Assembly (NCBI GenBank): GCA_004321885.1 | Contig: SCQK01000007.1 | Span: 32,001 to 96,000, forward strand | Direction of reading: 5' to 3' | Length of the DNA: 64,000 nt | DNA from: Patescibacteria group bacterium | GTDB lineage: Bacteria > Patescibacteriota > Patescibacteriia > Magasanikbacterales > GWA2-37-8 | Shown: positions 34,246-64,000 of the stretch, one piece after another | How the letters are laid out: the number at the start of each line of letters is the position of its first letter | How positions within the stretch are numbered: the stretch's first letter is position 1 | Program-made: the position numbers and the translations under genes | The notes under the pieces: generated by a model | Seen by the model: the letters and a program-made list of their open reading frames with translations, nothing else | Databases searched by the model: none | Told to the model about the DNA's origin: nothing

Positions 34246-34365
34246 CTCAATGAGATGGAATTGAACGTTTGAGAACAGTGCTTGGAATGCGCGTTTATGC
34301 GCTCTTTCCTGCACTTTCAGCGTCACTGATTGAATAGAGACTGGGACTTCGAACCCACGAGGTGA

Positions 34366-35754: not shown

Positions 35755-36231
35755 ATGACATTTCGTCGTCGCATCGGTATCGTCTTCGTCTGCATCCTGC
35801 TCGGGTTCGTTGTTCTGTTCGTGGCAGGACCCGGTTTCATGGTGGTCGACAACAGGGACATCCGAGCCGCCGATGATGTCTCAGCGGAGGACATGGCCGC
35901 TTGGCTGGGAGATGCTGGCTGGCAGGCGGATGCTACAAAACATTACTATCTCATCAACGTATCGGGAGTTGTGCATTCTCTCTCGCCGCGATCGCTCAAA
36001 TACCTCGAGGCGCGCATCACAAATACCAAGGCGAATCTGCGCGTGTACGCCGTCACACCGTTATTGGGTTTTGTCGTTGAACCGTTTCGACTCGGAACGG
36101 TGAGCCTCCTGTTTCTGATAGAGACACCGGAAGAGCGAGACCTAGCGGACATCATGCGGCAGTTCAGCTTCTGTGTACGTCAAAGTGATCAGAGCGGGCT
36201 ATGTATGCCCGTGTTGTCGGGGACACGTTGA
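35755..36231 (+). CDS. Membrane hypothetical protein within the island.
   Basis: N-terminal TM IGIVFVCILLGFVVLFVAG. Confidence 0.35.
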   Translation: MTFRRRIGIVFVCILLGFVVLFVAGPGFMVVDNRDIRAADDVSAEDMAAWLGDAGWQADATKHYYLINVSGVVHSLSPRSLKYLEARITNTKANLRVYAVTPLLGFVVEPFRLGTVSLLFLIETPEERDLADIMRQFSFCVRQSDQSGLCMPVLSGTR

Positions 36232-37672
36232 ACTGGCCGGCTTCGGAGCGGAGCGACTGATCATACCCCGGCGCCAACGTGATCTGCGGCGATCCGGTGC
36301 TGAGCTCCACCTTGGCGACCACCGCCTCGATCACTGAGCGCCGTGTCACCGGGTCGTCGCTGGCCAGCTTGGCGTTCATGGATTCCACCACCTCAAGCAT
36401 GGTGGCTCCTCGCTCGTCATCCAACAGGTTCTCCGGTCTGTTCACCAAGAACCACTCGGTTGCCCGGATCTGCTGGAGGACTGCGCCGCGCTCCTGATCG
36501 TACTGGCTGTCGTCGACCAGGCCCCTGGCGTACTGACGAGCCAGATCCTTCAGCTTCTCGTCGAGCTCGCGCCGTTGCTGCCTGAGCAGGCGAATCCGCT
36601 CGCCCTGCTCCTTGCTTCTGGTCCGGCGTGCCTGGCGCTCCGCCCGGCGCAGGACAGGGACCATGGTGGCAGGCAAGTCCATTGCCAGCAGGTTGGCGCA
36701 GATCTCATTGTCAAGGTCGGCCGCTCGGGTGCAGAAGCTACAACCCTGCTGGTGGCAACGGTAGTAGTCGTGGATTCTGCCAGACTTCTTGATGTGTCGC
36801 TCGCCGGTCAGCGTCGCGGCGCACCTCGGGCATCTGACCTTGCCGGCCAGGACGAAGACCAGATGCTTCCGGCCGCCTCGCACACTGCCTCCGGCTTTTT
36901 GCCGAAAGACCTCCTGGCACCGGTCGAAGAGCTCTTTGGAAACCAAAGGTGGATGACTGCCCGGGTAGCTCCTGCCCCTGCTCATCATCACGCCGATGTA
37001 GAACGGATTCTTGAGCAGCCGGCACCATTGGTTAACCGGTACTTTCTTGCCGTGGACACCCACCAGGCCGCTGCTGTAGATCGTGTCCGCCAGCTGGCTG
37101 GCTGTCAGCTTTCCCGTAGCCCACAGTTCAAACGCTTCTCTCACCCTCGTTGCCCTCGCCGGATCCAGCACCACACGATCATTTTGCATCAAATAGCCCA
37201 GACAAGGGCGGCCGAACCATTTGCCCCGAAGAAGGCGCTCTTCGAGGCCCTTGCGAACCTCGGCCGAGAGGTTCGCGCTGTAGAACTCTGCTTGTGCTGC
37301 CATAATGTTTTCCAGAAACTCACCCATAGGGGTCGCTTCAAAGGATTCCACCACCGAAAACAGCTTTACTCCATATTCCTTGAGCTGGCCCTTCAAGATG
37401 AGATGATTAAAGACGTTGCGGGACAGCCGGTCGATCTTGTGGACGACGAGGCCACTGATGGACTTGTCCCGTTTGACGTGGCCGATGGCGGCCATGAGCC
37501 CCGGACGCCCGCGCAACTGCCTGCCCGAGCTGACGTCCTGGTACCTGGCGGCCACGATCAAACCACGTTCCTCGGCGTATCGCTGCATCAGCCGAAACTG
37601 AGCCGCGATGGAAAGCTCGCGTTCCGCCTGCCGAGTGGTGGAGACGCGAGCGTACAAAATGACTGCTGACAT
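36164..37672 (-). CDS. Large serine recombinase (resolvase catalytic domain, then a recombinase domain, a zinc ribbon and a coiled coil).
   Basis: N-terminal ILYARVSTTRQ catalytic-serine motif, DRLSRN, and a Cys cluster CPRC..C..C. It is 502 aa. Confidence 0.85.
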   Translation of the reverse strand: MSAVILYARVSTTRQAERELSIAAQFRLMQRYAEERGLIVAARYQDVSSGRQLRGRPGLMAAIGHVKRDKSISGLVVHKIDRLSRNVFNHLILKGQLKEYGVKLFSVVESFEATPMGEFLENIMAAQAEFYSANLSAEVRKGLEERLLRGKWFGRPCLGYLMQNDRVVLDPARATRVREAFELWATGKLTASQLADTIYSSGLVGVHGKKVPVNQWCRLLKNPFYIGVMMSRGRSYPGSHPPLVSKELFDRCQEVFRQKAGGSVRGGRKHLVFVLAGKVRCPRCAATLTGERHIKKSGRIHDYYRCHQQGCSFCTRAADLDNEICANLLAMDLPATMVPVLRRAERQARRTRSKEQGERIRLLRQQRRELDEKLKDLARQYARGLVDDSQYDQERGAVLQQIRATEWFLVNRPENLLDDERGATMLEVVESMNAKLASDDPVTRRSVIEAVVAKVELSTGSPQITLAPGYDQSLRSEAGQFNVSPTTRAYIARSDHFDVHRS

Positions 37673-40875: not shown

Positions 40876-42747
40876 TCACTGATTTTCTTTTTCAAATTCT
40901 TTTTTGGCCGCTTCAATGTCCAGCAACTGCTGGGGATTGGTGGTCACAATCTGGTCTTCGGTGTAGGAGGCCACCACTTTAATGGCCGCGTGCTTGTTGC
41001 CGGCGAAAAAAATCCCCTCACCCACAGCGCTTTCCAAAAGCAGATATTTTTCGCCCTCGGTTAAAATAAACACTTTTTGCACCAAATCAATGGCCGCCGG
41101 CGACTGACGCAACAAAAGTTGCAGGGCCGAGTTCGTCACAATCGCCTGACCGTATTGCGAGCGCAAAAAATCATTCACATCCTGCGTGATGGTGGTAACG
41201 CCCAAAAAATATTTGCGGCAGCGCTTGACCAGGGCGAAAATAAAGCGAGCGCTGTCCTCGTGCTGCATCAGCCACCAGGCCTCGTCTATGGCCAGAATCC
41301 TTTTCTTGCGCTCCGAACGCACAACGTTCCAAATATAGTTGACGATGGCGTAAATGGCCAGGGGGCGCAACTCGTCTTCCAAATCGCGCACCGAAAAAAC
41401 CACCAGCTGATTTTTCACGTCCACGTTGGTGGGCGAATTAAACAGACCGCTAAACGTGCCCTCGGTAAATTTTTTCAATTTCAAGACCAGCTCGTTTGAC
41501 CCTTCCATGCCCTCCAAAATTTCCTCCAAATCCTGCATAATGGGCGGCGTCACCTTGGTCAAATCCGCGTCCGGCGTGATATCTTTTTTGGCGTAAGTTT
41601 CTATGAGCGCGCGGTCAATGATGGAATCCTGCTCGGTGGTAAGCCCGCCCAGCATGATGCGCAACAGCCCCTTCACGGTAATGACCGCCCCGCGGATAAT
41701 ATCATCCACGGAAATTTCCTGACCCACGGGCCGCGGCAAATCAAAGGGGTTCACCTTGCTTTCCGAAGATAAAGAAATATTTATATAGGTGCCGCCCACG
41801 GCATCGCACAAATGCTTGTATTCCATTTCCGGGTCAATCACGATAATGTCCGTGCCCATCATCATGGTGCGCAAAATTTCCAGCTTGATGGCATAACTCT
41901 TGCCGGCGCCGGAAGTGGCGAACACCACCATATTGGCGTTTTGCAAAGAAAAGCGGTCAAACAAAATCAGGCTATTGTTGTGTCGGTTGATGCCGTACAA
42001 GATACCGTCATCCGAGGTGAGCTCGGCGGAAATAAACGGAAAACTGGCCGCGATGGGGCTGGAGTTCATGTTGAAAGCGACCGCGATTTCATCGTTGCAT
42101 AAGGGCAGGGTGGAATTAAAACCCTGCTCGGACTGATAAAAAACCTTGCGCGAATAAATGAGCTTGCCGCCAAAAACATTTTCAATGTCTTCGCAGGTCT
42201 GGTCCAGCTCTTCTTTGGTTTTGGCGTAAACCGTAACATAAAACGCAAACTGAAAAAAATGCTCGGTGCCCTGGGTGAGATTGTCGCGCAGTTCTTCTAT
42301 GTCGCGCAGGGCGGTTTCGCGAATCGGGTCGCGCGGCGCGCCTTTTTCCGCGTCGGCGTTTATCTGCGCTTCCAGGGCGCCGACTTTATTGCGCAACTGC
42401 TTCAAAATTATAGCTGACTTGACCGGATAAAAAAACATGCCGATGTCCATGGTCACGGACATATTAAGAATGGGCGAACTCCAGCCCACCGAAATATAGC
42501 GCGGATAGGTGATGACAAAAATGGTGCGGCAAAAAATATCGCCCAGCTTCACGAAGCCGGTCTCCACGTTGAAAGCCGAGGGCGCGATGATGTCCTTAAT
42601 GGAAACCGTGCCCTCGCGATAAGCCCGCTCTTCGGCCAAAATCATGGTCTCGGCCGCGGCTTTCTTTTTTACCGCCTCTTCTTCTTTGCGCAGGCGGCTC
42701 TCGTCGGGCTGGCCGGTTGGTTTTACGATTTTTGGTGCAAAAGCCAT
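40876..42747 (-). CDS. virB4: VirB4/TrbE-family type IV secretion ATPase.
   Basis: Walker A VVFATSGAGKSY, with DUF87-like architecture. Confidence 0.75.
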   Translation of the reverse strand: MAFAPKIVKPTGQPDESRLRKEEEAVKKKAAAETMILAEERAYREGTVSIKDIIAPSAFNVETGFVKLGDIFCRTIFVITYPRYISVGWSSPILNMSVTMDIGMFFYPVKSAIILKQLRNKVGALEAQINADAEKGAPRDPIRETALRDIEELRDNLTQGTEHFFQFAFYVTVYAKTKEELDQTCEDIENVFGGKLIYSRKVFYQSEQGFNSTLPLCNDEIAVAFNMNSSPIAASFPFISAELTSDDGILYGINRHNNSLILFDRFSLQNANMVVFATSGAGKSYAIKLEILRTMMMGTDIIVIDPEMEYKHLCDAVGGTYINISLSSESKVNPFDLPRPVGQEISVDDIIRGAVITVKGLLRIMLGGLTTEQDSIIDRALIETYAKKDITPDADLTKVTPPIMQDLEEILEGMEGSNELVLKLKKFTEGTFSGLFNSPTNVDVKNQLVVFSVRDLEDELRPLAIYAIVNYIWNVVRSERKKRILAIDEAWWLMQHEDSARFIFALVKRCRKYFLGVTTITQDVNDFLRSQYGQAIVTNSALQLLLRQSPAAIDLVQKVFILTEGEKYLLLESAVGEGIFFAGNKHAAIKVVASYTEDQIVTTNPQQLLDIEAAKKEFEKENQ

Positions 42748-46723: not shown

Positions 46724-47218
46724 TTACGGGGTGCTTTTTTTATACTCAACTTTATTCCTCAAATCACTAACAAAACTAATTTTGCCGCCGGCCACTTTCC
46801 GCAATAAGTACGAGCAACTGGACGGCGCGGGCGCGATCAAGTGGCAAAACTTATTTTGTTTTCGCAAATAGTCAACTAAACAATGAAAATCACCATCGCC
46901 GCTGACAATTACGGCCTGATCATAATTCTGATATTCTATCATCGTGTGTAAAACCAATTCGGCGTCACAATTCCCTTTTACTTCACCGTCTTTCAATATT
47001 AGAGTTGGTTTAAATATCAAAATGTAACCAACCTCCTGAAGAAATTTATACAACTCCTCATTGCCAAATAAAAAACCAATGAACATAAACGCCTTCGCGA
47101 CGCTATATTTGTCTTTCAAATACCTGCGAAAACGAAAATAATCCAGCTTCCAACCAATGCGCTGCATACTGAAATATAGATTCTGACTGTCTATAAACGC
47201 GAAATTGTTTTCTTTCAT
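46724..47218 (-). CDS. NYN-domain (PIN-like, LabA-type) protein.
   Basis: AFIDSQNLY, DAELVLHTM and VIVSGDGDFHCLV motifs. Confidence 0.65.
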   Translation of the reverse strand: MKENNFAFIDSQNLYFSMQRIGWKLDYFRFRRYLKDKYSVAKAFMFIGFLFGNEELYKFLQEVGYILIFKPTLILKDGEVKGNCDAELVLHTMIEYQNYDQAVIVSGDGDFHCLVDYLRKQNKFCHLIAPAPSSCSYLLRKVAGGKISFVSDLRNKVEYKKSTP

Positions 47219-47236
47219 ACTTCGTTTCCCTCCCCG

Positions 47237-47348
47237 CCCCACTGTCATTCTGAGCGGAGCGAGGAATCCCTTACACTACGTTAACAGTTTCTATATCCCC
47301 TTTTTTCAAATGCAACACTATCGCCAGCGCCTCGCGCAGCCAAGAGGC
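47237..47348. repeat. 112 bp direct repeat (copy 2), overlapping the authentic 3' end of the gene 47271-48254.
   Basis: See copy 1. Confidence 0.75.
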
Positions 47349-51650: not shown

Positions 51651-54600
51651 TTATGTTAATTTTTTCAATTGTTCGCTGTCCAATCCTCTAATTAGCTTGA
51701 ATAGCTCCTGAATGTTCTTGATTCCCTGATCCCTTAGCCCCTGATCGTTTTGGGCGTTATTACGGTGCTGAAGTTCAATTTTACTGGACTCCGTCACATT
51801 AAATTCTTTAATATGCCTGACCGCCTCGGCCCCAAGATTATATTTTTGCAAGAAACCTTTAATGGCGGCGGCTTGTTCGTTATTAAGCAACGTAGCGCTG
51901 GCCCGCATTGTTTTGCGCACGCTTTCAATTACTTGTTGCGCTTCTCCACCAAAAGTAGTAGCGACTTCCTGCGCCAGCATATTCATTGTGGCGTCATCAA
52001 TCCAACTTTGTTCAAATAAGCCTTTCAAAATTGTCTGGGCCACCATTTTATCTTCCCAGGTCTGCTTGCCTTTCCCTTTAAGTGTAACATGGTTCATATG
52101 CCCGCGATGCGCCTGGAGCAACTGGTCGTAATTCATGTCCTTGAAATTCTTGAAAAATCCTTCCACCACGGCTTCTTCGGCGGCGGTGTTTGGCACATCA
52201 ATGCCCATATTGCCCCAAATATTCGCTTGCCCGGCCTTAGAAATCATGTCCTGGCGCGTGCCGCGATACAAAGTGTATTGATGATCGCGCAAGGCCAGCT
52301 GATGAGCCGCGTAAAGAGCGGGGTTGGCCGCGCCAGCTTTTCCCCAAACCGCGCTTAATTGTCCGCGCGACTGGGTGAGCGATCCCGACAAAGACTTGCC
52401 GATTTCTTCGACATTAGCCGCCGATCCGGCTTGCCGGAGCTGGCCCAATATTTGCTGTAATACATTGATTTCGGTTTTGGCTAAAAAATTTTCATCCATT
52501 TGCTGTTTGCCAAAAAGGACCTTAAAATTATTTTCAAGAGCGGTACCTTTCGTTGAACTAAGAAATGCTTGCGCGGCTGTTGCGTCAATTTTGCCGCCGA
52601 CTTTAATTTTTTCCATTGCCTTTGTCAGAGTTTCCAAACTCGCGGCCAATTCCTGTATTTTTTGTTGATTGGCGCCGCCGCTAAAAATACCGGCCGCGCT
52701 TTCCATCCCCTTCAATTTATTTTCATCAGCTTCTATTTCAGATTCTAAATTTCCAATCTCGTCAGCCAGCCTAACCCCTCTTTCAGTTTCATCGTCCGTC
52801 GGATTCGCTTTATTATTCAATACACCATACTCTCTTTTCATTTCTTCTAATGCACTCTTTTTAGAATCCAGACCAGTTCTCATTCCTTCAGCTTTTTCCC
52901 CGGCCGCCAACGCGGAAGCCACGCCCTGCAAAGATTGAATTCGCGTTTCGATGGGAGCCGATTCCGCTTCCAGCTTTCCCTTCCCTTTTTCATTTAACGC
53001 GCTTTGCGCGGCCAAAAGATTCTTCTCCTCTTCCGAACTTAATCCTTCTTGTTCAGACTTACTGCGCGCCAAGGCGCTAACATATTGTTCGCCCTGACTG
53101 GTATTTATCAGCCCGCCCCTAACGCTCGCTTCAATAAATTTAATCAGCTCCTCGGCAATTTGCCCGCCCAGTTCGCCCATTTTTTTAGCTTCCACTGTGT
53201 GCCGAAATCTTTGGAAAAACGCCGCCCTATTTCTCTTCGCTCCCATTTCTTCCAACCCGATTTCCGCCTCGGCCCGCGCTTTATGCGCCTGAATTTGTTC
53301 GCTGACTGTTCCCAAACCATATTTGTCTTTTTCACCAATTTGGAATTCGCCGTTCTTAAATCGCGCATTGCCTTTCACCGCGCGGCGGCCGTATGCCTTG
53401 TATTCGGTGGTTTTTTCTTCCGAACGCGCTTGTTCTGCCTCAAGCATGCCCTTTTCTATGCGATCCAACGCGTTAATGGACGGCCCTTCAAAGGCCTGAA
53501 ATAAATATTTTGGATCGGCGCTGATTCTTTTGTCCATCAATTCTTCGCGCACCTTGGCGAACTCCTGCACTCTCTTCAATTGTTTCCGGCTGCGCAAAAG
53601 CTTTTCGTGCCTCCCATGGAAGAAACGCTGAAACGGACCGCGACCCTCGTCAACGACCTGCTCTGTGTACCATTCATCCCCCTCTCGCACAAGCTTCGCG
53701 CCTTTTTTAATATCGGCCGCGGCCGCTTTTTTCGCCTCCTCTTCTGTCGCCACGGCTACTCCGCTTTTGTCGGTAATAAGATTTTTTTTCTTCTTAAAAT
53801 CATACTTCATCTGCGTTATCGCCTTACCATTCTCATCATATAATTTTCCGCTCTCATCGGCTGTTACACGAGCATTTTGTTCATCTTCGGTCAAAGCGTC
53901 TTTAGAATCTACTATTTTATTATTCTCGTCACGCTTAACTTTATGCCATGCTTTGCTTTTTTCGTCATATTCCATCTTATAACCCATCAATTCTTCATTT
54001 CTGGACAACCTGGATTTAATGTTCAATTCTTCCTCCTTCGTTTCCAACCGCGGCCCGCCGGCACGCCAGGCTCGCCAGCCCTCCACAATTGACCTTTGCA
54101 AATCGCCTTTGATTCTTTCAACTCTATTAGCCAATAAACCCTGATACAATCCTTTTCCTGTTAATTTTGCCAAACCAATCCCCGCTTTCTTAGCCCCCTC
54201 AACCCCCTTTTTCGCCGCCCAGCGCGCCGCGGTGTACCCGCTCGCCACCGCCGCCACCTTCTTGCCGAAGTCCGTCACTTTGCCCATCATGGCCCCGCCG
54301 GTTACGCCCAGCGCCTGGGTCACTTTCGCCCCAATCAAAAGCATGCCAATGGCAATGGCGAAGTTGGCCATGGCCGGCCATGTCATTGCCGCCGTAATTC
54401 CGGCGCTCTGGCCGCCAACTTTAATGTTTGACGCGCCCGCTGATTCAATGCCCTCATCGGTAATTTGAACCGGAACCGAATTATTGCTGGGGTCAGCTAT
54501 CTCTTTGCTTACTGTCCCGGACCCCACCACGGCAAAAGACAACCAAAGAAAAAACGCCAAAATCGGCCCGACAATCACGTGATTGCCAAACTCGGTCCAC

Positions 54601-55415
54601 CACTGGCTGGCGTATTTTTGCGTTTGCGGTATGACATTCAAAACAAAAGCCAAAGGGGATAAAATGATAAGCACCCAAAGCACAATCATACGCGCCAAAA
54701 GAATCACCAGATAAACACCCATGGTCACCATAGCCATCCCCGCAAAAGCGACTGCGGCAACCGAAGCCATAAATATGCCGGACATCTTGTAATTCTCCGG
54801 TTGCGTGCCGCCGGCAAATCTTTGTATATCATTAAAATTGAAGGCGTTTATAAGATTGCCGCCGGCCGTGGCCGCCACGCCATTGATAAAAGTTATCATC
54901 ACCACCTGGGCCAGGTCTATAATCAACCCGGCAATGGTGCGGCTGAAATTTACAAGTATCGCGGCAAACAATAATTTCACCAGTAATTTTTTGTATTCAT
55001 ATTGCTCTATGCCCAAAATTGTGCCAAAGGCGATAACGAGCAGGATAATTACAAAAAACATGTTGGTAACATCGCGCACCAACACCCACCCAGTAGTTAC
55101 CGCCGTTGAATCTATAAATCCATTGTATCCCCCAATTTGAATGGTAAAACGCAGAATGAAAATTGTAATCTTCATGAACAACGCCGCCATCCACATGGTA
55201 AAAGTAGTGCCGGCGCTCATTATGGCATCAAAAAATCCATCAGCCTGCGCCACTTCGGCGCCCATCACCCACATCAACAAAACAGTCGTGGCCACCATCA
55301 CAAACGAAACCATGCCCAACTTCCTGCTGGGTTTCAAAAATCGCAAAACAGCGCTCGCGGCCGCGCGCGCTTTTACGCAAACTTTACTCGCCTTTTTCCA
55401 AAGGGAGACAAGCAT
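51651..55415 (-). CDS. Giant VirB6/TrbL-like polytopic membrane protein with a long C-terminal coiled-coil domain (1254 aa).
   Basis: The N-terminal region of about 450 aa has more than 8 TM helices, followed by about 800 aa that are heptad-rich. Confidence 0.55.
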   Translation of the reverse strand: MLVSLWKKASKVCVKARAAASAVLRFLKPSRKLGMVSFVMVATTVLLMWVMGAEVAQADGFFDAIMSAGTTFTMWMAALFMKITIFILRFTIQIGGYNGFIDSTAVTTGWVLVRDVTNMFFVIILLVIAFGTILGIEQYEYKKLLVKLLFAAILVNFSRTIAGLIIDLAQVVMITFINGVAATAGGNLINAFNFNDIQRFAGGTQPENYKMSGIFMASVAAVAFAGMAMVTMGVYLVILLARMIVLWVLIILSPLAFVLNVIPQTQKYASQWWTEFGNHVIVGPILAFFLWLSFAVVGSGTVSKEIADPSNNSVPVQITDEGIESAGASNIKVGGQSAGITAAMTWPAMANFAIAIGMLLIGAKVTQALGVTGGAMMGKVTDFGKKVAAVASGYTAARWAAKKGVEGAKKAGIGLAKLTGKGLYQGLLANRVERIKGDLQRSIVEGWRAWRAGGPRLETKEEELNIKSRLSRNEELMGYKMEYDEKSKAWHKVKRDENNKIVDSKDALTEDEQNARVTADESGKLYDENGKAITQMKYDFKKKKNLITDKSGVAVATEEEAKKAAAADIKKGAKLVREGDEWYTEQVVDEGRGPFQRFFHGRHEKLLRSRKQLKRVQEFAKVREELMDKRISADPKYLFQAFEGPSINALDRIEKGMLEAEQARSEEKTTEYKAYGRRAVKGNARFKNGEFQIGEKDKYGLGTVSEQIQAHKARAEAEIGLEEMGAKRNRAAFFQRFRHTVEAKKMGELGGQIAEELIKFIEASVRGGLINTSQGEQYVSALARSKSEQEGLSSEEEKNLLAAQSALNEKGKGKLEAESAPIETRIQSLQGVASALAAGEKAEGMRTGLDSKKSALEEMKREYGVLNNKANPTDDETERGVRLADEIGNLESEIEADENKLKGMESAAGIFSGGANQQKIQELAASLETLTKAMEKIKVGGKIDATAAQAFLSSTKGTALENNFKVLFGKQQMDENFLAKTEINVLQQILGQLRQAGSAANVEEIGKSLSGSLTQSRGQLSAVWGKAGAANPALYAAHQLALRDHQYTLYRGTRQDMISKAGQANIWGNMGIDVPNTAAEEAVVEGFFKNFKDMNYDQLLQAHRGHMNHVTLKGKGKQTWEDKMVAQTILKGLFEQSWIDDATMNMLAQEVATTFGGEAQQVIESVRKTMRASATLLNNEQAAAIKGFLQKYNLGAEAVRHIKEFNVTESSKIELQHRNNAQNDQGLRDQGIKNIQELFKLIRGLDSEQLKKLT

Positions 55416-55428
55416 TCCAGTGTGATTA

Positions 55429-55791
55429 TTATGCGACTATATTATACCACAAAAAAAGCTCCGTAACAACGAAGCTGGGGATAAAAATACACGGGAAGCA
55501 GCCCGAGAGCTGAATGGGAGACGAGCCGTCGTTCCAGTCAATCTTTACATCTCGTATGGGCATCTGGTTCATGTCGGCATAAGCGTAAAATTTGAGGGTA
55601 ACGCGGGAGGGAGAGACGGGTATTGTTACGTCAGCGCTGGTTTTGTCGTTGATGGTGAGGCCTTCGGCGCCCTCAAAACAGATGCCGTTCCGGCAATTTA
55701 CCGCATCCAAGCTGTATACATTGTTTAATTTGGCAAACAAATAATTCAAATCGTTAAACAACCCTTTTTCCACCTGGCACTGGCTTTGCAC
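55429..55791 (-). pseudogene. Internally deleted fragment of the Cys-rich secreted paralog family.
   Basis: ..EKGLFNDLNYLFAKLNNVYSLD[deletion]AVNCRNGICFEGAEGLTINDKTSADV.IPVSPSRVTLKFYAYADMNQMPIRDVKIDWNDGSSPIQLSG is nearly identical to a segment of 58457-59842 but lacks both ends. Confidence 0.6.
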
Positions 55792-55885
55792 GCAGAGGTT
55801 GTTTCTACAAATACCGGTGATGATGTCACGATCGGATTTGCTTTTTTGAAAAAATAATGTATAGTATAATTACTGTTAAAATTTT

Positions 55886-56284
55886 ATGACTGATTTAGCC
55901 AGGCAACTGGAATTTTGGCTTTCGTCGGCCTCAAAAAATTGGCAGACCGCACTTTCTCTGTATAAATTAGGCCATTATGACATGTGCTTATTTTGCTGTC
56001 ATTTGACTTTAGAGAAAAAACTTAAAGCTATTATTGTCTACCTATTGAAAAAAGTACCACCGCCGATTCACGATTTAAATCGTTTAGCGCAAATCGCGGG
56101 GTTAAATGTTTCTCTCACACAACAAGAACAGCTTAATGAAATAACGAAATTTAATATCCAAGCCCGTTACGATGATATAAAATTGGCTTTTTACAAAAAA
56201 GCTACCAAATTATTCGCAAAAAAATATTTGGAAATAACACAAGAATTAATTTTATGGCTGGAAAAAAAATCGGGCGAGAAGTAA
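55886..56284 (+). CDS. HEPN-domain protein, the toxin-like partner of a HEPN/MNT pair.
   Basis: A 132 aa ORF. It overlaps the downstream nucleotidyltransferase gene. HEPN-like helical content with ..ARYDD.. near the C-terminus. Confidence 0.55.
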   Translation: MTDLARQLEFWLSSASKNWQTALSLYKLGHYDMCLFCCHLTLEKKLKAIIVYLLKKVPPPIHDLNRLAQIAGLNVSLTQQEQLNEITKFNIQARYDDIKLAFYKKATKLFAKKYLEITQELILWLEKKSGEK

Positions 56285-56592
56285 TGGAAAAAGTCGGTAA
56301 ATTAAAAAAATCTATTGAAGCGGACGGCATAAAAGTGCACAGTATATTTGTGTATGGCTCGTATGCGAAAGGGAATGCGCACAAATGGAGCGACATAGAT
56401 GTTTGTGTCGTTTCAAAAAATTTTGGGACAAAAATTAAAGAGCCGCAGAATTATTTATGGTCTAAGCGCGTAGTTTTACACGATTATTCTTTAGAACCGA
56501 TTGGATTTAGCTATAAAGATTTTAGATTTAGTAATTCACCTTTAATTAGCGAGGTACGTCGTACTGGCGTAAATATCGGCGATAAGGTATGA
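56254..56592 (+). CDS. Minimal nucleotidyltransferase (MNT) domain protein. The start may be at 56284.
   Basis: VYGSYAKG..SDIDV NTase motif. Confidence 0.6.
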   Translation: MAGKKIGREVMEKVGKLKKSIEADGIKVHSIFVYGSYAKGNAHKWSDIDVCVVSKNFGTKIKEPQNYLWSKRVVLHDYSLEPIGFSYKDFRFSNSPLISEVRRTGVNIGDKV

Positions 56593-56752
56593 ATCAACAA
56601 TTCTTGCGCCAGGTAATGATTGGCAGGGGCGACGGCTCGACACCGGTTCAACTTGACGGCTGCTTCCTCAATCATCTGTGGAAATTTATCCACCGAAATT
56701 ATGTATAGGCTAAGATACTCCCAAAATTCACAACCTCGTCAGACTTTTATTT

Positions 56753-56950
56753 TTGACGGAACTCCACATACCGCAGTATATCAAGTGTCAAATTGAGGAT
56801 TTAAATCCGCATTATCTTATACCTCGTTATCCTGATTTGGAATTCAAACCAAAATTTAGTTTTACCCACAACGAAAAGAACGCGAAAAAAATAATTAATT
56901 CCGCCGAAAAAATTGTAGTATGTCTAAAAAGCAAGTTAGAAAGATACTAA
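56753..56950 (+). pseudogene. C-terminal fragment of a second HEPN gene (N-terminus missing).
   Basis: Only 65 aa, with ..YLIPRYPD.. HEPN-like C-terminal motif, immediately upstream of a second MNT gene. Confidence 0.4.
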
Positions 56951-57249
56951 CAAAATTTGAAAATGAATTATCCAAAAAAATCAAAGTGGATAATATTTTT
57001 ATTTTTGGCAGCGCTGCCAGAGGCGAAATGACCAGAGACAGTGACTTGGATTTAATTGTCATTTCCAACAATTTCGACAAAATGGACTTCATGAAACGGT
57101 TGCAATTATTGTCGCGGGCCAGCGCGTGCTGCGCCGACAAGATTGCGATGGACGTGGTTGGATACACAATCAAAGAATTTAGGGACATGGACAAAGTTGA
57201 ATCGTTATCCTTAAAGAGAATCATGCGCGAAGGATATTTTGTGCGATGA
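56920..57249 (+). CDS. Minimal nucleotidyltransferase (MNT) domain protein, second copy.
   Basis: IFGSAARGEMTRDSDLDLIV. Confidence 0.6.
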   Translation: MSKKQVRKILTKFENELSKKIKVDNIFIFGSAARGEMTRDSDLDLIVISNNFDKMDFMKRLQLLSRASACCADKIAMDVVGYTIKEFRDMDKVESLSLKRIMREGYFVR

Positions 57250-57327
57250 GATAAGTTGTGAAACTCATTAAAAAACTTATCCACTCTTTTTTCTTGACAC
57301 CGCTTGGCTAAAAATGCGACAATACCC

Positions 57328-57356
57328 TTGACAAAAGGGTGTTTTTGTGTTATGTT
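57328..57356 (+). promoter_or_regulatory. Sigma70-like promoter (TTGACA, 17 bp spacer, TATGTT) within the left inverted-repeat arm.
   Basis: ttgacaaaagggtgtttttgtgttatgtt. A mirrored copy lies on the minus strand near 60560-60595. Confidence 0.45.
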
Positions 57357-57432
57357 GTATGGTTCTTTCACAAAGTGCTAAGTAGGCCAGTATATGGCCT
57401 GGTTAGCCACAAAAGAAGGTTTGGGTAAAGAG

Positions 57433-57572
57433 TGTCATTGCGAGAAGGGAGCGTAAGCGACCGACGCCTGTCCGCCTCTGGCGGAAAGCAATCCCAGTCA
57501 ATTACGAAAGGCCTGCCTGTCGGCAGGCAGGGATTGCCGCGTCGCTCACTGCGTTCGCTCCTCGCAATGACA
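57433..57572. repeat. MITE-like element of about 140 bp with imperfect terminal inverted repeats of about 30 bp (TGTCATTGCGAG...CTCGCAATGACA), in the 5' leader of a lipoprotein gene.
   Basis: tgtcattgcgagaagggagcgtaagcgac ... gtcgctcactgcgttcgctcctcgcaatgaca. A second copy lies at 60357-60496. Confidence 0.7.
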
Positions 57573-57613
57573 AACAACGTTTTTCCCCGCTTCGGCGGGG
57601 AAGGAGAAAGTCC

Positions 57614-58009
57614 ATGCTGAAGAAATTGATCGCCACCCTCCTCTGCGTCGCGTTCGCGATGCTCGCCGCGTCCTGCGGCGATGATGGCAAGACCCCGCCC
57701 CCGTCCGACGCGCGGGTCTCGCCCGAACTCCGCGCGGACGGTTGTCCGCCCGGACGAAAAAGGGACAACGTGTCCGGCGAGTGCGTGCTCGCCGACGGGC
57801 TTGTGCCAGACACGAAGAAACCCACGCCGGATACGGGTGTGTGCCCCACACTGCCGAAGGAGGAGGTTGCGTGCAAATTGGGCAAAACCACTGTCGTCAG
57901 TTGCACACTGACAAAGTGGAAACCTGGTGGCTGTGTCGACGTGTGGTGCGCGTGCAACACCGACCCTGGTTGTAACGGGTGGTGGCGCCGCGCTGACTGC
58001 GGCCTCTAA
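57614..58009 (+). CDS. Small Cys-rich lipoprotein (variant A), high-GC.
   Basis: MLKKLIATLLCVAFAMLAASCGDD with a lipobox. 13 Cys in the mature part. Confidence 0.6.
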   Translation: MLKKLIATLLCVAFAMLAASCGDDGKTPPPSDARVSPELRADGCPPGRKRDNVSGECVLADGLVPDTKKPTPDTGVCPTLPKEEVACKLGKTTVVSCTLTKWKPGGCVDVWCACNTDPGCNGWWRRADCGL

Positions 58010-58089
58010 CCTTCAAAAACTGCACTGAGCAAGACGTTCGGTGCAGTAAAAATTGTATTCTTTAAAAGAAGAACCTAAAAAGAAGAAAC

Positions 58090-58455
58090 TTACAAGACGA
58101 ACTTTAAAAGATTTTTTAATTCTTTTTCCTCTTCTATAAACTTTTTTTTCATCCTGCGAGCGGCGGCATAGCTGATTTGAAAGTCATTTTTTAATTGACG
58201 GGCGGTGTAATTTGAATCGCTTAAATAATTTTCAAACGCGGATAACCATTTTACCAAAGGTATTCTTGTCTTGTGGAATACTACCTCGGAGATGTCGGAA
58301 AATCTCCTTAAACAATTTTGACAAGTGTATTTTTTTATTTTCCTTTTATCTCTAATGGTGTAAACTCTCTTTGAGAAACAATCAGGACAAACCAGACCGC
58401 GAGGCCAATTCATTCTGCGCAGTGCCTGAAGGATTTGCGTTTCAGAATATATCAT
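58090..58455 (-). pseudogene. N-terminal fragment of an IS1595-family transposase (zinc-ribbon plus HTH only; DDE domain absent).
   Basis: CPDCFSKRVY....YTCQNCLRRFS zinc ribbon followed by PLVKWLSAFENYLSDSNYTARQLKNDFQISYAAARRM, typical of the IS1595 N-terminal region. It is only 121 aa. Confidence 0.5.
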
Positions 58456-58456
58456 A

Positions 58457-59842
58457 TCATTTCGGAGCTACAATGATGGATTTGGGAGAGGAGCCGCCGA
58501 AGGGGGTCCAGGCACCACTATCTAAAGGAAAACATTCATCATCGTAAGTATTCCCGGTGATTTGTCTTCTATCATAACACCCCGTCTTCCCCGGGCTATT
58601 CGCGTCACCGCACACCCCATTACACCACCCCCAATTATCCTTGACCTGTACCTTGGGGGTGTATTTGCAACAGCCTTCTTTGAAAGCGAGGTCGGACGGG
58701 CATTGAGAAGCCGGAACAAAGTTGGCGCTGTCTTTGACGCACTGATAGGAATAGTCGGCGCGGAAGTACGCGTTGTCGCAGGTTTTGTCCACAATCTGGC
58801 CGAAGTTGGGGGCGATGTTTTCCGGCAGGCATTGGTCTATGTTTTTGCAGTCATTCACTGACTGGCACTCTTTGTTTGTTGGTTTCTCAGTACCATACAC
58901 TTCTTTGTGCGTCACGGTATTATAAGAAGCTGTTTTTATATAGCAATATTTCTTGGCGTTAAATTCCCCGCCAACGGATTGGAAATCGCATTTCGTGCCT
59001 GTGGTTTTGCCTCGGTGATTGCGGAAGTAGCCCGAGAGCTGAATGGGAGACGAACCATCGCCCCAGTCAATTTTTACATCTCGTATGGGCATCTGGTTCA
59101 TGTCGGCATAAGCGTAAAATTTGAGGGTAACGCGGGAGGGAGAGACCGGTATTTTCACGTCATCACTGGTTTTGTCGTTGATGGTGAGGCCTTCGGTGCC
59201 CTCAAAACAAATGCCATTCCGGCAATTTACCGCTAAAATTTTCGGAGCCAAAGCCGCAGAAGATTGCTCGGTCGCATTGAAAAGATTATTTTGCGAAGAA
59301 ACGCGCGCCTGATAAACTCCAGCCTCATCCAAGCTGTATACATTGTTTAATTTGGCAAACAAATAATTCAAATCGTTAAACATCCCTTTTTCTATCTGGC
59401 TGTCCGAAAGCTGGCTTAGCAGCGGAGGCGCCGGCCTGGAAAAATCAAGCGTGCCGTCCACGGCGCCGCTCGCGGTCTTGTTCGTCTGCCCGCCTGGATT
59501 GATATTTTTGGAACTGTAAGGCGCGCCGGTCACAGTTTGGCTGGTGTTTTGCTGGCGAGGGCCGTACAGTAATTTAATATCTTCCTTATCCGTTAAAGGA
59601 GGATTAGTGATATTTAGACTGCCAAACGGAGACATCAGGGTTTTGAAAATATAGTCGGCCAATTTATCCACACCTGTCGGCGAGGTATGCAAATTAACAG
59701 TAAAATTTCCGCCTTCCCAAATTCTGTTTGTTTTGGCCGTATTGGCCCTGTAAGCCGCGTCCGCGATTTGCATAAATTTTCTTAAAGTAGTATTGCGTAT
59801 TCTCTTGAAAAGAGAAGGGATTCTCTGCTCAAGGGAACGCAC
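58457..59842 (-). CDS. Cys-rich secreted protein, a member of a paralogous family that also includes 60699-64000 and the fragment 55429-55791.
   Basis: It shares a C-terminal stretch of about 60 identical residues (NIAPNFGQIVDKTCDNAYFRADYSYQCVKDSANFVPASQCPSDLAFKEGCCKYTPKVQVKDNWGWCNG) with the large paralog. Confidence 0.6.
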   Translation of the reverse strand: MRSLEQRIPSLFKRIRNTTLRKFMQIADAAYRANTAKTNRIWEGGNFTVNLHTSPTGVDKLADYIFKTLMSPFGSLNITNPPLTDKEDIKLLYGPRQQNTSQTVTGAPYSSKNINPGGQTNKTASGAVDGTLDFSRPAPPLLSQLSDSQIEKGMFNDLNYLFAKLNNVYSLDEAGVYQARVSSQNNLFNATEQSSAALAPKILAVNCRNGICFEGTEGLTINDKTSDDVKIPVSPSRVTLKFYAYADMNQMPIRDVKIDWGDGSSPIQLSGYFRNHRGKTTGTKCDFQSVGGEFNAKKYCYIKTASYNTVTHKEVYGTEKPTNKECQSVNDCKNIDQCLPENIAPNFGQIVDKTCDNAYFRADYSYQCVKDSANFVPASQCPSDLAFKEGCCKYTPKVQVKDNWGWCNGVCGDANSPGKTGCYDRRQITGNTYDDECFPLDSGAWTPFGGSSPKSIIVAPK

Positions 59843-59893
59843 CGCGAGGCGATGCGTGAGAAGGTTAGGATGGGTGGGCGAGGTGGGGCGACG

Positions 59894-60316
59894 TCACTGC
59901 TTGGTGCAGGTGACATACTTGTCAGCTGTTTGACAAGATGTCGACTGTGCCGAAGCACAGGGAGCAACCGCCCCCCCCCCGTTCGTACAAGGGAAACGAC
60001 AGCCAGAGCCGTCTTTGTTCTCTGTCCCATCTGGAGAACATTGACGGATTTCTGATCCGGTGCACACCCACGTACCACCTTTCGGGCACTTCCCAGACGT
60101 GGTGTCCGGCGTGGGCGTTCCCTTGTCGCACTTCCCCTGCGCCGAGACGACGCAGGTAGGAAACGAGTCGCCGACGAGCCCGTCGGCGCGGAGAGTGTCC
60201 GCAATGCGCGCGTCGGACGGGGGGGCGGAGCCGGTGTCATCGCCGCAGGACGCGGCGAGCGTCGCGAACGCGACGAGCGTCGCGCAAAGGAGGATAGCGT
60301 TCAATTTCTTCAGCAT
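59894..60316 (-). CDS. Small Cys-rich lipoprotein (variant B), high-GC.
   Basis: MLKKLNAILLCATLVAFATLAASCGDD. The leader and 5' UTR mirror variant A, while the mature region is divergent. Confidence 0.6.
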   Translation of the reverse strand: MLKKLNAILLCATLVAFATLAASCGDDTGSAPPSDARIADTLRADGLVGDSFPTCVVSAQGKCDKGTPTPDTTSGKCPKGGTWVCTGSEIRQCSPDGTENKDGSGCRFPCTNGGGAVAPCASAQSTSCQTADKYVTCTKQ

Positions 60317-60356
60317 GTTCCTTCTCCTTCCCCACCGAAGCGGGGGTTTCGTTGTT

Positions 60357-60496
60357 TGTCATTGCGAGGAGCGAACGTAGTGAGCGACGCGGCAATCCCT
60401 GCCTGTCGACAGGCAGGCTTTTCGTAATTGACTTGGATTGCTTTCCGCCAGAGGCGGACAGGCGTCGGTCGCTTACGCTCCCTTCTCGCAATGACA
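60357..60496. repeat. Second copy of the MITE-like element of about 140 bp, in inverted orientation.
   Basis: tgtcattgcgaggagcgaacgtagtgagcgac ... ctcccttctcgcaatgaca. Confidence 0.7.
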
Positions 60497-60698
60497 CCCA
60501 TTACCCAAACCTTCTTTTTGTGGCTAACCAGGCCATATACTGGCCTACTTAGCACTTTGTGAAAGAACCACACCTTATACCACAAAACTGGGGTTTTGTC
60601 AACCTCGCCAAGAGGCCCCGCCTCCGGCAGGGTCAAGGGTATTGTCGCATGGCGGAGTGAACTCGTCAAGAAAAGATGTGATAAGTGACGATGTTTTT

Positions 60699-63600
60699 TT
60701 ATTTGGGAGCCACGATGATGGATTTGGAGAAAGAAGTAAATGCACCAGTATCATCTGTACACTCATCTTTTCCTCCATTCCAAAAACCCTGATAACACCC
60801 CCCGTCCTTCCCACCCGGACAACTCCCGTTACACCACCCCCAGTTATCCTTGACCTGCACCTTGGGGGTGTATTTGCAACAACCTTCTTTGAAAGCGAGG
60901 TCGGACGGGCATTGAGAAGCCGGGACAAAGTTAGCACTGTCTTTGACGCACTGGTAGGAATAATCAGCTCGGAAGTAGGCGTTGTCGCAGGTTTTGTCCA
61001 CAATCTGGCCAAAGTTGGGGGCGATGTTTTCCGGCAGGCATTGGTCGATGTTTTTGCAGTCGGTATCAGAACCGACTGTCTGGCAGGTTTTCGTCATGGG
61101 CCTCCTTATCTCGTGTTTATCTTCCGGCTGCACATAGGCGTCGGTTACAATGGTGCAGCGATTTTCTTTCACATCCTGATTAAGCGGATTGGGTACACTC
61201 TCACATTTGCCATCCACCTTCCCTCGGTGATTGCGGAAGTATCCATCAAGGACAACCGGCGCCGAGCCATCGTTCCAGTCTATCTTTACATTCCTGATGG
61301 GCATTTGGTTCATATCGGCATAGCCGTAAAATTTGAGGGTAACGCGGGAGGGAGAGACCGGTATTTTTACGTCAGCGCTGGTTTTGTCGTTGAGGGTGAT
61401 GCCGGCTGGCCCTTCGGTGCAAATGCCGCCCTGACAGTTGACAGACAGGACTTTGGGGGCTTTGAGAAAATTACTTAATGTCTCGGTGCGGTTAATTCCT
61501 TTGACTTCGTATGCATCTGAATTATATCGCTTATATATACCGAGATTATCTAGAGCAAATAAATTGTTGACTTTGGCGAATAGACTGTCAAGACGCGACA
61601 CGGAATTTATGCCTGCCGGCAAACCCGCGGGGGCTGGTTTGGTGAAATCAAGAGTGCCGTCCGGATTGCCACTAATTGTTCTGTTGACATAGCCGCCCGC
61701 ACCTGTGCTGCTTTTCGCGCCATACGGAGCGCCCACAATGCTCTGGATGGCATTCTGCTGGCGCGGGCCATAAAGTAACCGCAGGTCTTCTTTTTCCAAA
61801 GAAGGAGGATTGTTGATGTTGAGAGAGCCAAATGGTTCGGTGAGAGTTTTGAAGATGTAATCCGAGCCAGAGCCGGAAAAAGAGACGGAATATTTGCTTC
61901 CCTCCCAAATCCGGTTGGTCCAGGCCGTGCTCTGCCTGTCGGCAACATCGGCGATTTGGTCGCAGTATTCTCTTAATCGCGCCGTCACTTTTATATTTAT
62001 TGGAAAATAAGATTGGCCCGACTGCTCCTCATTTGGCCACCAGCCAGGACCGCCGCCGGCCAAACATTTTGCCACACCGACTTTAATCAGCTTTTTGTCT
62101 TTGTCAAACACCAAAACCACTTCCAAAGATTGCTGTCTGTCTTCTTTGCCGTTATCGCACAAATCGCCGGCGTCTTTGGCGGTCACCTGCATAACACTGT
62201 CTTTCAAACTATCTCCGTATTCGGGAAAAAATCCGGACTGGTCTTTAATGTAGTCGCGTTGCAGAACCCCGGCTCCCGCGTCCCGGTTATCGGAGAAAAA
62301 TCTCATTATGGTGTAATCGTTAAATTGTTTGATGCGCGTTTCCGCCAGCGGCGGCCGCGTGTTGATGGGTTTCTCAAATATTAAAGAATGTTCTTTTTCC
62401 GTATCACACAGTTCGGTTGAGTTGTAAGCGTCTCCTTTCAGCGAACCATCCGCGTTTTCTTCCGCCACCACGCATCCTGATTTGCCCGCCTGGTCAATGT
62501 AATTTTTTCCGTACAATGTTCTGACCCGTTTCGTAATATCGCTCTTGGCGCCATTACGGATAATATATGTGCCGCGCACCACATTATTGTCACCGCCGAT
62601 ATTTATGAACATGTCGGCCTCAATTTCCACCTGGTCTATATCATACAAATGAATGTCGTAATCAGCCACTTGTGAAAAAGTAACTCTGTTAAATAGACTG
62701 CCATATTTCCAAGACGCGGGATTGGGGTCTTTATGGCCGGGAAAATTAAACTCCTGCGGGTCATCTGCTTTGGCGAACGGCGTATAACCGACCATTTTTG
62801 ATGAAACAGAACCTGGTTTGATTATCGTCTCTGCCTTCAATGAATAAACAATGCCCTGGGGCACGAGTGTTCTGCTAAACGGAGACGGCATCAATGGCAA
62901 AAGAGACACGCCATAGCATTCTGACGGGTCGCAAAAATAATGTGCGTCATCGCTATTTGTAAAATATTGACGCGGCTGTTGGTCGCTGCCGGGGACTTGA
63001 TTATAGAGCGACTCTCCGATTTTTGGATTCACAGTGCTATTGATTGTAAGGTCGTTGGAATAAAAGGCGACTATTTGGCCTACTACACTTTTATAAATAG
63101 TGGCGCATCTTTGAATCTTTTCCTTGCTACAAAACCTTCCAAAAAAAGTCGGATAAGCGCTGTAATCGCCCCTATTCCCCGCTTCTCTGGCGCAATAATA
63201 CCGTCCATAGGCCGCGGGCTTGTAGCCGGCTTCGTCAAACTGGTTGTCCACGTCCAATGCCCCATTCAAGGTCTGCACCGGCAGCCAGGACAGGCACTGA
63301 AAGTTGGTCTGCTCGGAATTTATCGGGCGAGACATATCTTTTTCCAGACAAAAACCACGCCAGCCGATGAAGCGGTTTTCTTTTTTCTTGATTTCGCAAG
63401 TGCCGGATGTCTGGCCCGCGCAATCATCGTCAGTCGCGCAGGGCTTGGTGTCATAAGAGCCGCCCAGACAATAGCCCTGGGGCACGGCATTACCTTTGTT
63501 CGGATTGGTGTAGCCCCAGTATTTTACAGTGCTGTCTCCGTAATTTACCTTCGTGTAATCGCATTCGCAGGCAGAAGCGGTTTTGGTGTCCGTGGTTTCA

Positions 63601-64000
63601 ATAGCGCCGCTCTCATTGCACTTGTTGGCATTGACAAAGGCCTGGGATTTTACCAGATTGGCGGTGTTGGGATAGGGCGATTCTTTTTCCGGATAGGCGC
63701 GGCAGGTGTGGTTGGGCGCCTGGTCCATGATATTGCTGTCCGGGCCAGACGGGCTTTGCATACAGAGGTTGTTTTTGCAAATGCCGGCGCTGTTTTTGCC
63801 GCAGGGTTTGTTGTTGGCGCCCTGGGCGCAATTATAATCATTTGGCTTGGCCGGGTCTTTGCAGTTTAGCCCGCCGCAAGGAATCATTTTCACCAAACGC
63901 CAGTCCGGATTTTTGCTGTCGCCTAAATTGCGCTGGTCCAATTCTTCGGGCGGATACAAGCCCAGCAAACTAAAACCAGAATAGTCCAGTCCCTTCCACG
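60699..64000 (-). CDS. Large Cys-rich secreted protein of the same paralog family. The N-terminus lies beyond the window edge, so the CDS is partial.
   Basis: More than 1089 aa with no upstream stop before position 64000. The C-terminal domain is near-identical to 58457-59842. Confidence 0.6.
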   Translation of the reverse strand, partial: WKGLDYSGFSLLGLYPPEELDQRNLGDSKNPDWRLVKMIPCGGLNCKDPAKPNDYNCAQGANNKPCGKNSAGICKNNLCMQSPSGPDSNIMDQAPNHTCRAYPEKESPYPNTANLVKSQAFVNANKCNESGAIETTDTKTASACECDYTKVNYGDSTVKYWGYTNPNKGNAVPQGYCLGGSYDTKPCATDDDCAGQTSGTCEIKKKENRFIGWRGFCLEKDMSRPINSEQTNFQCLSWLPVQTLNGALDVDNQFDEAGYKPAAYGRYYCAREAGNRGDYSAYPTFFGRFCSKEKIQRCATIYKSVVGQIVAFYSNDLTINSTVNPKIGESLYNQVPGSDQQPRQYFTNSDDAHYFCDPSECYGVSLLPLMPSPFSRTLVPQGIVYSLKAETIIKPGSVSSKMVGYTPFAKADDPQEFNFPGHKDPNPASWKYGSLFNRVTFSQVADYDIHLYDIDQVEIEADMFINIGGDNNVVRGTYIIRNGAKSDITKRVRTLYGKNYIDQAGKSGCVVAEENADGSLKGDAYNSTELCDTEKEHSLIFEKPINTRPPLAETRIKQFNDYTIMRFFSDNRDAGAGVLQRDYIKDQSGFFPEYGDSLKDSVMQVTAKDAGDLCDNGKEDRQQSLEVVLVFDKDKKLIKVGVAKCLAGGGPGWWPNEEQSGQSYFPINIKVTARLREYCDQIADVADRQSTAWTNRIWEGSKYSVSFSGSGSDYIFKTLTEPFGSLNINNPPSLEKEDLRLLYGPRQQNAIQSIVGAPYGAKSSTGAGGYVNRTISGNPDGTLDFTKPAPAGLPAGINSVSRLDSLFAKVNNLFALDNLGIYKRYNSDAYEVKGINRTETLSNFLKAPKVLSVNCQGGICTEGPAGITLNDKTSADVKIPVSPSRVTLKFYGYADMNQMPIRNVKIDWNDGSAPVVLDGYFRNHRGKVDGKCESVPNPLNQDVKENRCTIVTDAYVQPEDKHEIRRPMTKTCQTVGSDTDCKNIDQCLPENIAPNFGQIVDKTCDNAYFRADYSYQCVKDSANFVPASQCPSDLAFKEGCCKYTPKVQVKDNWGWCNGSCPGGKDGGCYQGFWNGGKDECTDDTGAFTSFSKSIIVAPK

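Follow-up and report, generated by a model that had tools for sequence, protein, structure and literature searches.

Genes for a HEPN domain and for a minimal nucleotidyltransferase (MNT) occur as adjacent pairs of two described classes. In Class I, the HepT/MntA modules or type VII toxin-antitoxin (TA) systems, the MNT gene lies upstream and the HEPN belongs to PF01934 or PF08780 and carries the motif RX4HXY (PMC7641770). Class II goes back to a prediction of Makarova et al. 2009 (PMC2701414); its name is due to Yao et al. 2020 (PMC7641770), who defined it by the families PF05168 and PF01909, the absence of RX4HXY, a retained GSX10DXD and a conserved Tyr. The PF05168 proteins (HEPN-T) often lack the canonical His and have a conserved His elsewhere (Anantharaman et al. 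2013; PMC3710099). Here we describe two adjacent PF05168 HEPN and PF01909 MNT two-gene modules in a metagenome-assembled genome of Patescibacteria (Magasanikbacterales; assembly GCA_004321885.1). They were located at 55886-57249 of a 64,000-nucleotide (nt) stretch of contig SCQK01000007.1 (its positions 32,001 to 96,000, forward strand), which is called the window below and is numbered from its first letter.

The best explanation of the locus, to which we give a probability of roughly 0.55, would be the following: two distantly related Class II modules lie side by side, the HEPN gene of the second was truncated by a rearrangement, and the modules act in a TA-like manner resembling that of type VII.

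Composition and class of the two modules

Four genes make up the locus:

55886-56284, forward strand: HEPN1, intact, 132 amino acids (aa); PF05168 at E=3.2e-18, 66.4 bits against a cutoff of 22, profile positions 2-116 of 117

56254-56592, forward strand: MNT1, intact, 112 aa; PF01909 at E=2.8e-11, 44.1 bits against a cutoff of 21; Polbeta (PF18765) at E=1.8e-8

56714-56950, forward strand: HEPN2, pseudogene remnant, the last ~76 of 133 codons (58%) and the stop codon at 56948-56950

56920-57249, forward strand: MNT2, intact, 109 aa, orphan; PF01909 at E=3.3e-12, 47.1 bits against a cutoff of 21

The open reading frames (ORFs) of a preliminary description of this DNA (55886-56284, 56254-56592, 56753-56950, and 56920-57249) were all recovered, with the HEPN gene upstream of the MNT gene in each pair. 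Its domain calls also held in searches with Pfam profiles: PF05168 and PF01909 matched in both pairs, always above the gathering score, including the ORF 56753-56950 within HEPN2 (E=9.3e-6; 26.2 bits against a cutoff of 22), which covers profile positions 70-115 of 117 only. The two motifs it quoted, VYGSYAKG..SDIDV in MNT1 and IFGSAARGE..SDLDLIV in MNT2, were found, and each fits GSx10DxD. The site residues are G35, S36, S46, D47, and D49 in MNT1, with E81 as the third acidic residue, and G30, S31, S41, D42, and D44 in MNT2, with D78 in that position. Among 96 partner MNTs the G-S and D-x-D columns, which both proteins carry, are invariant (96/96), and the third acidic column is likewise invariant or nearly so. 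The motif region of MNT1 aligned to the Legionella MNT (8XEH), MntA (5YEP), and HI0073; the best sequence match of MNT2 in the PDB was 2RFF (E=2.9e-5). A 158-aa ORF on the reverse strand (56895-57371) spans all of MNT2; it is most likely spurious, given the strong Pfam match of the forward-strand gene.

All junctions over 55731-57389 were reproduced at 100% identity in an independently assembled Logan contig (L001, SRR8426592), and are thus no artefact of the GCA_004321885.1 assembly. That contig, 100% identical, was the only one besides the window found to bear HEPN1. A search of all six frames of the window with a hidden Markov model (HMM) of the HEPN1 clade returned no further HEPN or MNT genes. 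Among the proteins of the locus, none reached the cutoff of any NCBIfam model. In PADLOC, the HEPNs had no match and the MNTs matched only the uncharacterised candidates PDC-S09 and PDC-M05A, hence no named defence system.

The four module genes have a guanine-plus-cytosine (GC) content of 33-39% (about 36% for the modules), as compared to 49% for the window, and both modules are compositionally foreign, AT-rich islands; the spacer between them, at 47%, is host-like. The preliminary description called the pairs tandem, which is correct as to their adjacency but not as to duplication: with the HEPNs 21% and the MNTs 32% identical, a recent tandem duplication was ruled out. By these identities the modules are distinct lineages set side by side.

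Both modules are assigned to Class II (COG2250/COG1708 type) and not to Class I, based on four observations. First, neither HEPN1 nor the HEPN2 remnant matched PF01934 (DUF86) or PF08780 at E<=1. Second, an Rx4-6H motif is absent throughout HEPN1, where the local sequence reads R94-Y-D-D-I-K99. Third, the NCBIfam equivalog MntA_antitoxin (NF047752) has a cutoff of 60 bits, of which the MNTs reached only 31.2 and 37.3. Fourth, the gene order is the reverse of that in Class I. The locus shows all the defining features of Class II: the two Pfam families in adjacent genes, GSx10DxD, no RX4HXY, and the conserved Tyr. It also shares with described Class II pairs the small size of the proteins (109-132 aa) and a mobile, patchy distribution. 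It differs from them in that one of its two copies is a natural HEPN truncation and in that the HEPN1 clade belongs to mesophilic uncultured lineages (Patescibacteria and others), whereas COG2250 was first emphasised in thermophiles and archaea.

The preliminary description had likened the pairs to HepT/MntA-type modules, a comparison that these four observations do not bear out. With the Class I modules of Shewanella (SO_3166/SO_3165), Aphanizomenon, and Legionella (HEPN-MNT), the locus shares a helical HEPN with an adjoining Pol-beta-fold MNT, GSx10DxD in both MNTs, a HEPN Tyr conserved near a conserved Arg, and an overlapping or tightly coupled operon; the weak resemblance of the MNTs to the MntA model also agrees with such a relationship. 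Unlike the locus, however, those modules have a PF01934 or PF08780 HEPN with RX4HXY and an upstream MNT; HepT structures are also poorer matches to the HEPN1 fold (see below). That the locus is a canonical type VII module, in which an Rx4-6H ribonuclease (RNase) toxin is neutralised by oligo-AMPylation through MntA, is thus very improbable.

Residues, fold and gene order in the HEPN1 clade

The HEPN1 clade was defined by an exhaustive profile search (E<=1e-3; 3,638 clusters at 50% identity), from which 159 representatives were aligned. The key residues of HEPN1 are E43, K44, K47, H62, R94, Y95, D97, and K99. H62 and Y95 are present in all 159 representatives; E43, K47, and R94 in 158; K44 in 150; D or E at 97 in 138; and K99 in 136. 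Five residues after the Arg, at R+5, the clade has Lys in 130 of 152 sequences, and a His at R+5 to R+7 was found in just 5 of the 152.

An AlphaFold2 model of HEPN1 was all-helical, with a mean predicted local distance difference test (pLDDT) score of 90.3, and predicts the all-alpha helical bundle of the HEPN superfamily. Foldseek assigned it a probability of 1.00 to 1UFB, 1WOL, 2HSB, 4NQF, 3O10, and 1O3U. The closest structures were TT1696 (1UFB; template modelling (TM) score 0.76), ST0689 (1WOL), AF0298 (2HSB), the sacsin HEPN domain (3O10), and TM0613 (1O3U), with TM scores of 0.66-0.76; scores against HepT toxin structures were only 0.31-0.58, poorer than against these classical HEPNs. 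The same five proteins share with HEPN1 an E-x-x-x-K motif in helix 2 and an R-Y-P/D-D motif, although sequence identity is only 13-23% and none has an established toxin function. TT1696 keeps R-Y-P-D-A-H (Rx4H), where the HEPN1 clade has Lys at R+5.

The fold and the conserved residues also enter into a different account, that of a split nucleotidyltransferase (NTase): the HEPN would be the subunit that binds the nucleotide or the substrate and so completes the MNT site, and the complex would modify a small molecule, a protein, or RNA. The parallel is the helical C-terminal domain of kanamycin and lincosamide nucleotidyltransferases, in which the same two folds occur together. A HEPN without the RNase motif agrees with this account, and the strictly conserved E43-x3-K47, H62, and R94-Y95 could make a binding site; E43 and K47 are presumably the equivalents of catalytic residues in the kanamycin enzyme. 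The fold search also recovered, weakly, the LinB helical domain (3JYY) and an NTase-like protein (3C18), and the MNTs weakly match models of aminoglycoside and lincosamide nucleotidyltransferases (ANT(4'), ANT(9), and Lnu), with scores far under the cutoffs. Those enzymes differ from the locus in being single polypeptides of 250-290 aa with the NTase domain N-terminal, and the locus has no resistance context. A role of this kind was the original proposal for HEPN, and antibiotic inactivation was left open as an alternative by Makarova et al. 2009 (PMC2701414). We nevertheless consider a split enzyme the less likely account, although a serious rival. The pairs are patchy, multi-copy, and context-independent, and they cluster with Class I TA modules, all of which is typical of selfish modules. 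An obligate heteromer would, moreover, leave an orphan MNT2 useless, yet MNT2 is fully intact; the loss of its partner may be recent, however.

Pairing was followed in one genome per GTDB species, where 504 loci encode relatives of HEPN1; the counts that follow cover the best 80 of these. Represented among them are Patescibacteria, Elusimicrobia, Smithella and other Deltaproteobacteria, Gammaproteobacteria, Bacteroidales, Scalindua, and others. In 80 of 80 loci (77 by ORF script, 3 by manual translation) the gene directly downstream, on the same strand and usually overlapping the HEPN gene, encodes an MNT with GSx10DxD; in none does the MNT lie upstream. The preliminary description had made its reading depend on an Rx4-6H motif and on co-conservation of the pair: without the motif the canonical RNase-toxin reading fails, but the pair is co-conserved throughout. 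The HEPN-first order, universal here and a point of difference from Class II as described, qualifies the general statement of Anantharaman et al. 2013 that the MNT is almost always 5' (PMC3710099). The same HEPN-then-MNT pairing was seen in the contexts of homologues P0008, P0009, P0013, P0014, and P0018. PF01934 modules that lie near PF05168 modules in contigs L002-L006 and L017 have the opposite order, MNT then HepT; with both orders side by side in Magasanikbacteria contigs, gene order tells the two classes apart.

Contigs L002-L006, from Magasanikbacteria, each carry three consecutive HEPN/MNT modules (at about 2500-4700 in L002-L004 and 1600-3900 in L005-L006), with a Class I module (MNT then PF01934 HepT) between two of Class II (PF05168 HEPN then MNT). 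In some of these assemblies the MNT of the first Class II module is uncalled, which suggests further partial decay.

HEPN1 and MNT1 overlap, as the preliminary description had it. The overlap is 31 nt long, or 1 nt (TAATG) if translation of MNT1 starts instead at an in-frame ATG at 56284. With either start of MNT1, the arrangement of the two genes predicts translational coupling. The HEPN2 remnant and MNT2 likewise overlap by 31 nt. In 78 of the 80 loci the reading frame of the MNT is -1 with respect to that of the HEPN. Such tight coupling in a fixed frame would also suit the stoichiometric complex of a split enzyme. A run of eight A residues (56262-56269) in the HEPN1/MNT1 overlap forms the heptamer A_AAA_AAA in the HEPN1 frame, where a -1 slip would fuse HEPN1 to MNT1. 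Programmed frameshifting as a family feature was rejected: only 21 of the 80 relatives, mostly from AT-rich genomes, have a slippery heptamer, and adjacent Lys codons in AT-rich DNA probably account for it.

Upstream of module 1, one further element was read directly from the sequence:

55865-55870, forward strand: TATAAT hexamer, perfect, 15 nt before the HEPN1 ATG

The hexamer may serve as the -10 element of a module 1 transcript with a short leader, although this is a weak inference: a consensus promoter scan passed over it, since the closest TTGAAA (55846-55851) lies at a distance of only 13 nt.

Truncation of HEPN2 and the roles of the partners

Homology to HEPN in module 2 extends over 56714-56947; it starts right after an in-frame TAA (56711-56713), and at residue ~58 of 133. 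Three full-length partner HEPNs (L013, L017, and L014) compared with the window by tblastn matched at 53%, 49%, and 35% identity (E=2e-29 to 3e-12), in each case from query residue ~56-58 onwards, and the clade HMM covers the remnant at positions 58-129. The preliminary description was correct that only a C-terminal HEPN piece precedes MNT2, but the ORF at 56753, which begins with the first possible start codon (TTG), understates the remnant. What is missing is the N-terminal ~57 codons, i.e., helices 1-2 including the E-K-x-x-K motif. What remains keeps the codon of the conserved His (56729-56731) and a lineage pattern like that of HEPN1, K-I-H-N-L ... R-Y-P-D-M-Q-F-K, where the family reads R-Y-P-D-M/L-Q/E-F-K. 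From 56714 to the stop codon the reading frame is free of internal stops and frameshifts.

The missing half was not found in any frame or strand of 56400-57000 (tblastn, E<=10; only spurious short matches), and the 121 nt between the MNT1 stop codon and 56714 are too few for 57 codons. A frameshift was therefore rejected as the cause of the short HEPN2 in favour of a true truncation. The interval holds instead a piece of another gene:

56589-56684, forward strand: surface-protein gene fragment, 32 codons, MNQQFLRQVMIGRGDGSTPVQLDGCFLNH; tblastx 56% identity over 32 aa, E=4e-6; blastn 74.5% over 55 nt

This fragment is inverted relative to the surface-protein copies at 55495-55572, 59006-59101, and 61218-61313, and marks a rearrangement junction between the two modules. 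Based on the host-like spacer and the inverted fragment, HEPN2 was cut by a rearrangement involving paralogous surface-protein genes. The preliminary description spoke of a decayed HEPN; the gene is indeed reduced to its C-terminal piece, but the intact frame points to a clean 5' truncation by rearrangement rather than to erosion by point mutation. The event looks recent, as the remnant has no internal stops and is 53% identical to its homologues, a value near that for MNT2 (59-63%).

MNT2, by comparison, keeps every catalytic residue and a conserved start, and has homologues at 51-63% identity. The contexts of three of these (P0013, P0014, and P0018) were read, and each overlaps an upstream HEPN that is full-length (129-133 aa) or cut by the contig end. 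The HEPN is thus the lost partner in module 2. This asymmetry fits a harmful HEPN and a protective MNT, although it would be a weak clue, the truncation being apparently so recent.

The asymmetry bears most directly on a reversal of roles, with the MNT as a toxin (e.g. one nucleotidylating tRNA or other RNA, like the MenT or AbiEii types) and the upstream HEPN as its antitoxin. This was the original prediction of Makarova et al. 2009 (PMC2701414). The HEPN-then-MNT order of all 80 loci is the common antitoxin-first layout, and the MNT is the sole partner with an unambiguous catalytic site. Under such a scheme, however, module 2 would have lost its antitoxin while the toxin stayed intact, a state expected to be lethal or counter-selected; escape would be possible only if MNT2 were silent or if HEPN1, 21% identical to the remnant, cross-protected. 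In Class I the homologous MNT is, by experiment, the antitoxin (PMC7641770). We regard reversed roles as quite improbable.

Under the Class II reading that we favour, and by analogy with type VII HepT/MntA, the MNT would use its GSx10DxD and E/D site to attach a nucleotide monophosphate to an invariant residue of the partner HEPN, the Tyr directly after the invariant Arg (R94-Y95). So modified, the HEPN dimer would not exert its growth-inhibiting or effector activity, and the module as a whole would act as a mobile TA-like element of the addiction or stress type. The HEPN activity, if catalytic, would use the invariant set of the clade, H62, R94, K99, and E43/K47. Judging from the residues present, its chemistry cannot be that of a canonical Rx4-6H Arg/His RNase, and that mechanism is not transferable to HEPN1, since the motif is absent.

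Several points weigh against this scheme. The missing RNase motif of HEPN1 is itself one of them. The HEPN-first order reverses both the usual antitoxin-first layout and the order of Class I. Retention of MNT2 would be weak evidence of selection when the truncation is apparently recent. Class II is without biochemistry, and its TA status needs validation (Yao et al. 2020; PMC7641770); our literature searches found no later characterisation of its toxicity, RNase activity, or nucleotidylation. Finally, carriage by phages or plasmids was not supported: searches of 50,697 phage records and of the viral contigs of IMG/VR gave no relatives, and the only plasmid match, a weak one, was to a Bacteroides plasmid; the link to mobile elements rests on composition and local context.

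We also put forward, tentatively, the possibility that the HEPN-first clade, with its E43-x3-K47, H62, R94-Y95, Lys at R+5, and downstream MNT in the -1 frame, is a mechanistically distinct system and not a degenerate HepT/MntA. The HEPN may then be an effector with a new catalytic set (His62, Arg94, and Lys99), or a non-nuclease partner that only is, or presents, the substrate of the MNT. If so, the orphan but intact MNT2 would be a free-standing anti-addiction or cross-protecting transferase.

Genomic neighbourhood and significance

The modules are embedded between variable surface-protein genes, as the preliminary description stated, in a region that bears scars of recombination, and the left flank is itself a truncated paralogue of the genes at 58457-59842 and 60699-63968:

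55429-55791, reverse strand: truncated surface-protein paralogue, left boundary of the AT-rich insert; direct repeats D1 and D3

Two segments of it recur further to the right: 55494-55704 at 59023-59233 (93% identity) and 55701-55778 at 59323-59400 (95%). The family of surface or secreted proteins comprises this copy, the fragment at 56589-56684 (forward), 58457-59842 (reverse), and 60699-63968 (reverse); it has no Pfam match and shares DNA segments (D1-D3) that are 78-95% identical. The truncated copy and the inverted 32-codon fragment flank HEPN1-MNT1. A diversity-generating retroelement acting on the flanking repeats was considered and rejected: mismatches between the copies are not adenine-specific.

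Homologous modules have neighbours as unrelated as groEL, a methyltransferase, and AAA ATPases, and they also occur in arrays together with Class I modules, which fits mobile TA-like modules. Further to the left, the window holds a tRNA-Ser gene (34154-34246) and, on the reverse strand, genes for a large serine recombinase (36164-37672), a VirB4/TraG-like P-loop ATPase (40876-42747), a NYN-domain protein (46724-47248), and a 1,254-aa multi-pass membrane protein (51651-55415). The resemblance of 34154-55415 to an integrated conjugative or type-IV-secretion-like element suggests that such an element ends near the HEPN/MNT modules.

To the right lies an inverted repeat of ~415 nt (57328-57741 and 60180-60602; 79-96% identity, with a 96% core at 57411-57579 and 60350-60518). 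It includes a promoter-like TTGACA-17-TATGTT, and two paralogous genes for Cys-rich lipoproteins (57614-58009, forward; 59894-60316, reverse), which are 62-64% GC in the 49% GC window, have their 5' ends in it. These genes converge on an IS1595-type zinc-ribbon ORF (58090-58455, reverse) and the surface-protein gene at 58457-59842, a layout that would allow inversion of the 2.4-kb middle segment. The leader of the first lipoprotein gene (57357-57613, forward) has a predicted minimum free energy of -124 kcal/mol (z = -8.8 relative to shuffled sequences). It holds a ~145-nt imperfect palindrome at 57432-57575 (GTCATTGCGAG...CTCGCAATGAC) followed by a GC-rich hairpin. A second, inverted copy lies at ~60320-60570; the two are 96% identical, above the adjacent coding sequence, and a partial copy lies at 13764-13798. 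The leader had no Rfam match, and no relevant Rfam families were found over 54000-61000; a palindromic repeat element and a structured RNA are both conceivable identities for it.

The locus adds little that is new in kind, being a further example of the known and abundant Class II type, of which Yao et al. 2020 counted 9,583 pairs (PMC7641770). To the question of which partner of a Class II pair, if either, is toxic, HEPN1 and MNT1 bring a compact, intact test pair, together with a list of residues for mutagenesis: E43, K47, H62, R94, Y95, and K99 in HEPN1 and D47, D49, and E81 in MNT1. The truncated HEPN2 beside an intact MNT2 is a natural experiment that argues against the model of the MNT as a toxin. 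For the family as a whole, annotation pipelines and readers should not carry the HepT/MntA RNase mechanism over to pairs of the PF05168 type.

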